Assembly (NCBI RefSeq): GCF_030013205.1
Contig: NZ_CP122648.1
Length of the DNA: 64,000 nucleotides
Direction: 5' to 3' (one strand)
Source: Escherichia coli
GTDB lineage: Bacteria > Pseudomonadota > Gammaproteobacteria > Enterobacterales > Enterobacteriaceae
The position numbers were made by a program. Of the stretch, positions 37,301 to 40,300 are shown piece by piece. How positions within the stretch are numbered: the first letter of the stretch is position 1; each line of letters opens with the position of its first letter.

Positions 37301-40300
37301 GTATCCGGTGCTGGCCGACTTCTTCAAACCTGCCCTGGCCGGAAAGCCTGCAGCAGCAGCAGGCCTCGACACATTGGAATGAAGCACTCAAAACCCGCGC
37401 ACAGAGTAGCCCGCAGTTGCGTGGCTGGTTGCAGACCCGTCAGGACTTACATGCTTTTGCAGATCTCGTGATGCGGCGCGAGAAAGAGGGACTAACCCTT
37501 TCCTATATCAAAAATGTCATCTGGCAGGCGGAGCGGGGACTGGGGCAGGAAACACCCGTTGAGTCTCTGTTGACGCAGTACCAGGATGCCCGTGCGCAGA
37601 AGCAGAATATAGATGCGCTGGAAAAACAAATTAATGAGCGACTCGAAGGCGTGTTAATCCGCTGGCTGCTGCTGAAGAATAACGTCATGCCAGAGGCGGC
37701 AACCGGGACCACGGCCGAAAAATAATTATTTAATTAAAGGAGATTATCATGGCAAATATGAGTTATTTATCTTTGAGTGGAGAGACACAAGGGCTGATTT
37801 CAGCAGGTTGCTCAACGCTTGATTCTGTCGGAAACAAAGCACAGCCAGAACATAAAGATCAGATCATGGTTTATGCGTTAATGCATTCCATCTCAAGAAG
37901 TCAAAATGTCAATCATCATGAATTAATTATCACCAAACCGGTTGATAAATCCTCACCATTGCTGGCAAAAGCACTTAGTGACAATGAAAAAATGGTAACA
38001 TGTGAATTTATACTCTACCGAACCAGTAAAGCGGGTATTTACCAGCCTTATTATAAAATAAACCTGTCAAAAGCCCGAATATCAAGTATTGATTTTGTCA
38101 CACCGCATGCTGTCCTGGAAAAAGAACTGGAGCCACAGGAGAGAATTGCCTTTATTTATGAAGATATTTCCTGGGAGCATACGTTAGCCGGTACGAATGC
38201 AATGAGTAAATGGCAGGATCGTGTACAGTAATTTACTGTAATAACATAATAAATTACTATTGCGGAGAGATATAATGGCTGGTTTAAGGAATAATAACAA
38301 CACACAGAATGCACAGTGGGCTGATTATGTGGGTGACATTCTTCGGGGGGCTCAACCGATAAACCAGCTAGTACCTCAGCACCCTTATCTTAACGACGTC
38401 CCACTCATTGATGAATTAAGGCGTCAGAACACTCATCATGTTATTCTCTTGACACTTGATGTTGCAAAAAAAATACTCAGCTCAATAACATCATTTGATT
38501 ACATTCATTTTATCACTACACATCCTTCAGGTATAAAAGATACACTCGCTTGGTTAGTTAACGCGGGTAAATTAATGACTGAGTTTGATGGAAATGGGAA
38601 AATTATATTTAACTTTAATACCTTAAAGTATACAAAAGCAAGTTACTTTGAAATACTTGGAGAGAAATATATAAAAATTACAACATCCAGCCCCTGGCTT
38701 TTAGAAAAGCTCGGTAAATATATTTTCTCTTCACGAGCGCCTCAAGTTCTGGAACTCGCTATTGGCTGGCGAGGAGCTTTATCTGAATCAATAAAAGGAG
38801 TTAAGTTCTGTATCTGGTTTTCAGTAGCCTGGAGAACCATAGAATTTATTATGAGTTCAGAGCGAGATCTGGTTAATTTTCTTGGTGATTTTTCAATGGA
38901 TGTGGCCAAAGCAGTGATTGCAGGCGGTGTTGCAACTGCTATTGGAAGCCTGGCTTCTTTTGCCTGTCTTAGTTTTGGCCTTCCAGTAATTCTTGTAGGA
39001 GGAGCAATTTTACTTACAGGGATAGTGTGTACAGTTGTTTTAAATGAAATCGATGCTCAATACCATTTATCAGAAAAATTAAAAGATGCAATTAGAGATG
39101 GACTAAAACGGCAACAGGAACTTGATAAATGGAAAAGGGAAAACATGACTCCATTTATGTATGTTCTTAACACTCCCCCCGTGATATGAGGATTAACTAT
39201 GCGTTTACATGTTAAATTGAAAGAGTTTTTTTCGATGTTTTTTATAGCCATGTTATTTTTCCCTGCATTCAATGCTTCTTTATTTTTTACCGGAATTAAA
39301 CCTCTATATTCAATAATAAAAGGCTCCACGGAAATATTTTATGATTGGAGAATGTTGATTCTATGCTTCGGTTTCATATCGTTTTCCTTGTTAAATATTC
39401 ATGTAATTTTACTAACAATAATAAAATCATTCTTAATAAAAAAAACAAAGGTAATCAATTTCGCCACAGACATAACAATACAGCTAACTCTTATATTTTT
39501 ACTAATAGCTATCGTAATAGCACCTTTAATAGCTCCTTTTGTCACAGGATATGTCAATGCTAATTATCACCCCTGCGGTAATAACACGGGGATTTTCCCA
39601 GGAGCAATCTATATTAAAAATGGCATAAAATGTAATAATGAACATATTTCTCGCAAGGAAGATTAAGCAGTTAAATAATTAAATATTCTAAAACAAACAG
39701 TTTTTAACACCGGATTCCATGTCCTTTCTTGCACTGTCTTTGTCAGGAACAATTTCTTATGCAAAGAATTTTGTATTATTGCCGCCAGAAATTCCTGGCG
39801 GCAGATATAATTTATTATTGATAGCGGTTAACCAAATCTTTTACCATCGCTTTATAGGTCTTTTGCTTAAGTTGTATGATTTGCTGCTCTGTCATATCAG
39901 TCGTACTGGCTTCATTCTTGCCGGGAAATGGTGGAAGCACTTTATATTCATAATTCACCGGCGACCAGGCAGCCCACTCACCTGTAGCTACATCCACCAG
40001 CGTGAATCGCACCAGATAGCGCAGTGAGATTGTGTTAGTCAGTTTTTCATTTTTATAATCGGACCATACTGTTGATTTCAGTGCAGTGTCATATTTTCCT
40101 GTCTGCAACGTATCCTGGTAAACAATAATCGCTTTCTGATGGCCTTTTGCCGCCACAAAACGTAATGCCTGCATCCAGTTCATATTTTCAGCACTGGCAA
40201 CATCCTCGTTCTCATTTTTATCTTTGTTTTTGTTACAAGTCAGAGGCTTTTGTCTGTCCGGGATACCAGAGAATGTGGAAACAGTATAATATTTTCGCAT

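Follow-up and report, generated by a model that had tools for sequence, protein, structure and literature searches.

A candidate Tme/Tmi effector-immunity pair at the 3' end of a decayed type VI secretion operon in Escherichia coli

Results

The locus downstream of hcp

The window analyzed here is a stretch of 64,000 nucleotides from Escherichia coli (assembly GCF_030013205.1, contig NZ_CP122648.1), and its subject of interest is a pair of small genes, tme and ykfM, that follow hcp at the end of a type VI secretion system (T6SS) operon and probably encode a membrane-disrupting effector and its immunity protein. The gene order across the window is fadE-ivy-yafV, an ISAs1 remnant, a truncated rhs, tssB-tssC-tssE-tssF-tssG-tagH-tssJ-tssK-tssL-tssH, hcp, tme, ykfM, yafT on the minus strand, aspV, dnaQ and rnhA. 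Positions 17712-40875 share 99.93% identity with E. coli O139:H1 W13-16, whose RefSeq annotation therefore transfers to the window, and the segment 37700-40700 is 100% identical to that record. The features of hcp and of the pair are as follows.

37749..38231, plus strand: hcp, encoding the TssD tube protein of 160 residues (TIGR03344, E 1e-60; RefSeq 'Hcp family effector' WP_000002621.1 in the 100%-identical record)
38264..38267, plus strand: GGAG, Shine-Dalgarno sequence of tme, 7 nt ahead of ATG 38275, read from the sequence
38275..39189, plus strand, stop codon included: tme, 304 residues, the full-length form of K-12 yafU; DNA identical to the coding sequence of WP_000908071.1
38275..38394, plus strand: N-terminal ~40 residues of Tme (MAGLRxNxKTQNAQWxDYVGxILRGxQPINQLVPQHPYL), a candidate loading signal
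38638..39105, plus strand: Tme toxin domain, residues 122-277 (limits from PMC7046647; core of our own profile at positions ~120-280)
38899..38910, plus strand: D209-V-A-K212, the DxxK motif that marks the Tme domain (without exception in the 10-sequence alignment A1; conservation of at least 90% over 82 divergent sequences)
38911..39054, plus strand: hydrophobic glycine-rich helical hairpin, residues 213-258, followed by D260 (Kyte-Doolittle peaks at 222-252; AlphaFold 2 model)
39188..39192, plus strand: GAGGA, Shine-Dalgarno sequence of ykfM, overlapping the tme stop codon, read from the sequence
39199..39666, plus strand: ykfM (tmi), 155 residues, encoding a predicted immunity protein with three transmembrane (TM) helices, DUF1240-like
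39565..39633, plus strand: C-terminal Tmi motif Y123-x2-C126 ... Y138-x-K140-x4-C145 (Y123, C126, Y138 and C145 are the same in all 13 Tmi/DUF1240 proteins compared; the model shows a beta-hairpin that packs on the loop-1 strand 45-48)

A sequence-only reading of this DNA had placed two plus-strand open reading frames after hcp, at 38260..39189 (309 residues from a TTG codon) and 39199..39666 (155 residues). Both are present, but the first gene is slightly shorter than proposed: its true start is ATG 38275, giving 304 residues, rather than TTG 38260, because the GGAG at 38264-38267 lies only 2 nt past the TTG and because the RefSeq protein and all homologues open with MAGLR. The intergenic gaps are 43 bp between hcp and tme and 9 bp between tme and ykfM, the latter as originally described. 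The overlap of the tme stop codon with the Shine-Dalgarno sequence of ykfM suggests translational coupling, and hcp, directly upstream, is presumed to be a carrier of Tme or a co-transcribed partner. The pronounced AT-richness first noted for the pair is borne out: tme has a fractional GC content of 0.379 (38%) and ykfM one of 0.297 (30%), relative to 53-60% for the T6SS core genes (tssB-tssL 0.53, tssH 0.596); hcp (0.391) and yafT (0.412) are likewise AT-rich.

The 304-residue protein belongs to the Tme family

The type VI membrane-disrupting effectors (Tme) were described as a family set from Vibrio parahaemolyticus Tme1 and Tme2, with a characteristic DxxK-TM-Asp motif (Fridman et al. 2020, PMC7046647). 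WP_000908071.1, the exact protein of the window, is listed as a Tme in Supplementary Data 5 of that study (domain 122-277, E 1.3e-37), where its neighbours are Hcp WP_000002621.1 at 43 bp upstream and a 155-residue three-TM protein at 9 bp downstream, a geometry that matches the window exactly. The E. coli pair is therefore already published as Tme/Tmi, only as this table row, and both the family and its class of mechanism are in print.

Independent evidence comes from a profile built from ten close homologues and searched against 1.84 billion representative sequences at a cut-off of E ≤ 0.001. It recovered 702 representatives that share a common core at positions ~120-280, always C-terminal in the longer proteins; Vibrio Tme1 was not located among these matches by cluster look-ups. 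Two distant relatives carry PAAR N-termini (P0109 and P0125, with PAAR above the NCBIfam curated cut-off) and two others (P0144 and P0179) join the MIX-type N-terminal region of the Vibrio effector VPA1263 to the Tme domain. Since it is fused to PAAR and MIX-type N-termini, the Tme domain can be described as the C-terminal toxin module of specialized T6SS effectors, and these fusions accompany the genetic association with a T6SS seen in the window itself, where tme follows hcp within the operon.

Across 82 Tme-family sequences with a mean column identity of only 18%, the near-invariant positions are G129, G137, G164, G175, D209, K212 and D260, and P237 is additionally invariant in alignment A1. 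With D209, K212 and D260 each at least 90% conserved and the hydrophobic segment 213-258 lying between them, the DxxK-TM-Asp motif is complete in the E. coli protein. The AlphaFold 2 model has an overall predicted local distance difference test score (pLDDT) of 72.6, and its long helices span residues 165-299 with 10-residue block means of 69 to 95, mostly 80-95. Within this region, the modelled helices 199-234 and 238-263 form a hydrophobic helix-break-helix hairpin with the break at G235-L-P237; the published Phobius call is a single TM segment at 234-256 and no signal peptide (PMC7046647). Searches of Pfam, NCBIfam and Protein Data Bank sequences with both proteins returned nothing significant, and the only sub-threshold matches, to DUF6722 (E 7.7), XopF2 (E 0.13) and AhlB (E 0.9), fall on the hydrophobic segment. 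As the sequence-only reading had left to be checked, profile and structure searches found no homology to a housekeeping membrane protein family.

Close homologues of the 304-residue protein were found only in E. coli/Shigella, in Salmonella at 63% identity, in Rahnella at 39% and in a small number of enterobacteria from metagenomes. The gene arrangement extends further, as a DUF1240-type gene lies directly downstream of the tme homologue in all seven lineages compared (E. coli, Salmonella, the L009 locus, Rahnella, Photorhabdus, Kluyvera and Xenorhabdus) and hcp adjoins tme in the first five of these. In Rahnella and Photorhabdus the adjoining hcp is an orphan, and the tme-tmi genes lie far from the T6SS core. 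The first of two tme-DUF1240 sets in Salmonella enterica is followed, at 11586-13010 of locus L004, by a second, broken tme (a 169-residue N-terminal fragment and a 43-residue open reading frame) and then a second DUF1240 gene, an arrangement of tandem effector-immunity cassettes, and three consecutive DUF1240 genes follow a single tme in Photorhabdus (L007).

Several close Salmonella, Photorhabdus and Superficieibacter homologues, encountered as AFDB50 matches to the Tme model, bear the UniProt label 'ImpA domain-containing protein'. An ImpA_N (PF06812) N-terminus was considered and rejected, as none of the ten members matches this Pfam model and BLASTP of residues 1-122 against Salmonella VasL and TssA gave only E > 1; the naming is either over-propagated or reflects a similarity too weak to detect.

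YkfM resembles the Tmi immunity proteins

DUF1240 and DUF1240-like proteins have been redefined as the Tmi immunity family (PMC7046647). YkfM gives no Pfam match, PF06836 (DUF1240) included, even at E ≤ 10; among the 13 proteins encoded downstream of tme homologues, 4 pass E ≤ 0.001 and 8 pass E ≤ 0.1 for PF06836. The connection emerges through intermediates: YkfM is 50% identical (E 6e-48) to a syntenic Salmonella protein of PF06836, and a 69%-identical relative also carries this domain. Profile-profile comparison by hhalign of the YkfM subfamily with DUF1240 proteins encoded beside distant tme genes gave 96.9% probability (E 1.9e-10, 135 columns). Tmi1 and Tmi2 were themselves assigned as DUF1240-like on an HHpred probability above 95% (PMC7046647), and the designation of YkfM as DUF1240-like is based on the same kind of profile evidence.

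Position and topology point in the same direction. A Tmi would be expected to follow Tme directly, to have 3-6 TM helices and to lack a signal peptide; YkfM follows after 9 bp with three hydrophobic segments, and Phobius places the 155-residue protein as i12-32o52-75i96-119o, N-terminus in and C-terminus out (PMC7046647). The AlphaFold 2 model (pLDDT 81.7) consists of three long helices and a small sheet, assembled from loop 1 (residues 45-48) and a C-terminal hairpin with two cysteines. Because of the N-in/C-out topology, the cysteine module is predicted to face the periplasm, where Tme would act. A disulfide is possible within the motif that contains C126 and C145, and the module may participate in recognition of Tme.

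A conserved N-terminus precedes a divergent putative toxin

Over its first 40 residues, Tme is 82-90% identical to relatives that match it at only 22-32% along the rest of the sequence. Comparison of the L009 locus with the window gives a similar picture for the cassette as a whole, as Hcp is 74% identical and Tme 34%, and Tmi is recognizable in its C-terminal motif only. A conserved front end followed by a co-diverging toxin and antidote is the pattern that would be expected of a loading signal attached to a polymorphic effector-immunity cassette. A search with Tme residues 1-68 returned only truncated fragments of the same gene, so no other toxin domains were seen with this N-terminus.

The RIX N-terminus of Vibrio Tme1 is both necessary and sufficient for secretion, and by analogy with it the Tme N-terminus may serve as a loading signal. 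E. coli Tme is not filed as a RIX protein, since the literature confines RIX to Vibrionaceae and Moritellaceae, and a survey of T6SS in enterotoxigenic E. coli (ETEC) that used a RIX hidden Markov model found no RIX. Gene linkage suggests that delivery of Tme would be mediated by Hcp.

Decay of the secretion system and retention of the pair

The T6SS of this strain has suffered extensive losses. The match of tssH (clpV) to the ClpV model breaks off at position 758 of 852, and the gene is joined near 37336 (window ~37273-37400) to the 3' end of vasL; relative to intact clusters, vasI/tagO, tssA, tssM and most of vasL have been lost between the two. This junction is contiguous in just 21 of 5426 complete E. 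coli genomes, indicating that the deletion is recent. tagH, an FHA-domain gene at 30977-32257 on the plus strand, has an internal stop according to the RefSeq entry of the near-identical record, and only an open reading frame of 324 residues (31283..32257) stays open in the window; the divergent rhs is truncated as well. Because tssM and tssA are absent, clpV is truncated and tagH is interrupted, delivery of Tme from this locus is probably impossible. The same island has decayed differently in ETEC1706 (L005), which kept hcp-tme-ykfM.

Among the 5426 genomes, 2997 have ykfM and 2561 have tme at nearly its full length. About half of the complete genomes carry the pair, and ~430 have ykfM without a full tme. 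K-12-type genomes have an intact ykfM beside a tme that the ISAs1 remnant has cut to its last ~118 codons (yafU), and they have no T6SS. The sequence-only reading stated that K-12 keeps only fragments of both genes, which is correct for yafU, a 5'-truncated remnant, and incorrect for ykfM. Such retention of an antidote after loss of the weapon would fit a role in orphan immunity.

These observations also bear on whether the pair is itself a decaying, functionless remnant, with the T6SS dead and two small genes merely not yet deleted. The truncated and fused clpV, the loss of tssM and tssA in a recent deletion, the interrupted tagH, the truncated rhs and the different decay patterns of the same island in other strains are all what this explanation would predict. 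It is nonetheless unlikely, as both reading frames are full length with motifs and ribosome-binding sites intact, pairwise dN/dS against another E. coli allele is 0.19 for tme and 0.35 for ykfM, and ykfM is kept more often than tme, including in genomes that lack the whole T6SS, a bias that fits selection for immunity.

Within tssH, the hexanucleotide of a (CAGAGT)n array is repeated 11.7 times in frame at positions 36454-36523 (plus strand), which gives ClpV a (Glu-Ser)n run. Between 17712 and 37700 the window and W13-16 are offset by 12 bp, possibly two units of this array.

Flanking genes

Convergent to tmi is yafT, an AT-rich lipoprotein gene (PF25851) at 39815-40600 on the minus strand, and this orientation is repeated in E. 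coli, in Salmonella (L004) and at the L009 locus. yafT persists at 86-92% identity in genomes without hcp-tme-ykfM, for example O157:H7, and its RefSeq names vary among lipoprotein, aminopeptidase and hypothetical protein. The space between the two genes contains one further candidate feature.

39779..39804, plus strand: candidate GC-rich hairpin resembling a terminator, between ykfM and the convergent yafT (weak evidence from a consensus scan only, with 1 site against 2.4 in shuffled sequence)

Between yafT and the tRNA-Asp gene aspV, window 40876-41580 is an insertion of ~705 bp of the IS200 family that is absent from W13-16, with its tnpA at 40979-41437 on the minus strand (NF033573, E 1.9e-43).

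Discussion

A model for Tme and YkfM

The reading that we favor, with a probability of roughly 0.8, is that tme-ykfM, which closes the aspV-linked T6SS operon at its 3' end, encodes a Tme effector and its Tmi immunity protein, in a strain whose T6SS is probably unable to deliver Tme and for which the pair is most likely valuable through the protection afforded by YkfM. The original suggestion of an hcp-linked T6SS effector with a membrane-resident immunity protein thus gains support from the published Tme listing, the DxxK-TM-Asp motif, the PAAR and MIX-type fusions and the DUF1240-like character of YkfM. Gene structure, family membership, motifs, synteny and T6SS decay are documented here or in print; the toxicity, specificity and delivery route of the E. 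coli proteins we infer, as set out below.

The N-terminal region of Tme would load the protein onto the secretion apparatus, with the adjacent Hcp as the most likely carrier or companion. To judge from its homologues Tme1 and Tme2 of Vibrio, Tme would then be delivered into the periplasm of a Gram-negative neighbour, where its C-terminal domain, comprising the DxxK signature, the hydrophobic helical hairpin and the conserved aspartate, would insert into the inner membrane from the periplasmic side, collapse the membrane potential and render the membrane leaky without lysis. YkfM, with three helices in the inner membrane and a small periplasmic module that contains cysteines, would specifically neutralize its cognate Tme in sister cells. 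What remains of the pair's value in this strain is most likely the protection that YkfM would give against E. coli neighbours that still fire Tme. The precedent for this scheme is substantial: Tme1 and Tme2 are toxic when expressed in the periplasm, and in the cytoplasm Tme1 has no effect on growth and Tme2 only slows it; neither causes lysis, and both bring about propidium iodide uptake and a loss of membrane potential comparable to that seen with CCCP and with VasX, the positive control; and toxicity is rescued only by the cognate Tmi (PMC7046647).

Several observations weigh against this reading. The local T6SS is probably non-functional, which could leave tme without a use here. With a mass of 34 kDa, Tme exceeds what would be usual for a classical cargo of the Hcp lumen, which makes loading on Hcp uncertain, and the tme-tmi pairs of Kluyvera and Xenorhabdus have no adjacent hcp. 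Neither Tme nor YkfM matches Pfam or NCBIfam models directly, so that membership in the Tme family rests on the profile, the motif and the published position-specific scoring matrix, and the structure search found no solved structure resembling the Tme model, leaving no specific pore architecture supported. Our literature searches found no toxicity, secretion or other experiment on the E. coli pair; the statement of the sequence-only reading that no function is established is outdated at the level of the family, for which Tme/Tmi is published.

Two further explanations fare worse than that of a decaying remnant. It is very improbable that the 304-residue protein is an accessory or structural membrane protein of the T6SS, such as one resembling ImpA/TssA, and YkfM an unrelated envelope stress protein. 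The UniProt naming of several close homologues and the altered killing of a K-12 ykfM::Tn5 mutant by nalidixic acid, mitomycin C, peroxide and SDS would agree with such roles, but ImpA_N finds no match in the ten members and the N-terminus has no BLASTP similarity to those of VasL/TssA, the domain is C-terminal in PAAR and MIX effectors, it also occurs with an orphan hcp or alone, far from the T6SS core, always with DUF1240 next and sometimes in tandem copies, and the founding members of the family are proven toxins (PMC7046647). A T6SS-independent membrane toxin-antitoxin or addiction module that hitch-hikes beside hcp is equally improbable, for although the Kluyvera and Xenorhabdus pairs lack a neighbouring T6SS gene and the pair persists where the T6SS is broken, 99.7% of Tme-encoding genomes contain at least one hcp and at least one vgrG, a T6SS gene is the immediate upstream neighbour of ~70% of tme genes, Tme has no signal peptide in the published table, and toxicity from the periplasm rather than the cytoplasm is the opposite of a classical toxin of this kind (PMC7046647).

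Relationship to known systems

Taking the pair as Tme/Tmi, its closest counterparts are V. parahaemolyticus Tme1/Tmi1 and Tme2/Tmi2, which share the C-terminal Tme domain with DxxK, TM segment and aspartate, the downstream multi-TM DUF1240-like immunity gene and the T6SS linkage (PMC7046647). In contrast to the RIX N-terminus of Vibrio Tme1, E. coli Tme has its own conserved 40-residue N-terminus and is encoded directly after hcp in the main T6SS operon. T6SS-dependent secretion and periplasmic toxicity have been shown for Vibrio Tme1 and Tme2. K-12 yafU/ykfM occupies the same locus between yafV/ISAs1 and yafT-aspV, and its ykfM DNA is ~95.5% identical to that of the window; K-12 retains neither hcp nor any of the T6SS, and its tme lacks the first ~186 codons, whereas tme and ykfM are complete in the window. 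No sequence or fold relationship to Tme was detected for other T6SS effectors that depolarize membranes or form pores, namely VasX, Tse4, Ssp6, Ssp4 and Tke5, the AhlB match mentioned above being not significant. With these effectors, the expected likeness lies in periplasmic action, loss of membrane potential and a membrane-embedded immunity protein.

Implications

The biology proposed here is ordinary, one more Tme/Tmi pair, and the finding is of practical use mainly for annotation and for the design of experiments. In RefSeq the effector still goes under 'hypothetical protein' and its immunity gene under 'protein YkfM'; the K-12 literature treats ykfM as encoding an uncharacterized membrane or stress protein, still 'uncharacterized' in 2024, and we found no paper linking ykfM to the T6SS in the literature searched. 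The ETEC survey listed no cargo effectors at the E. coli T6SS loci that it covered, which would be expected to carry tme if they belong to the same aspV-linked island.

More tentatively, and at somewhat less than even odds, the ykfM of K-12 and of the ~430 genomes without a full tme could be a working orphan Tmi that shields these strains, the standard laboratory prey MG1655 among them, from Tme of other E. coli, and the 40-residue N-terminus, conserved where toxin and immunity protein have drifted to about 30% identity, could be an Enterobacterales Hcp-loading signal, a counterpart of RIX. The presence of the presumed antidote in K-12 prey strains could skew the outcome of T6SS competition assays. 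If the orphan Tmi of MG1655 does work in this way, it would mask Tme in such assays and would explain why the effector has gone unnoticed.

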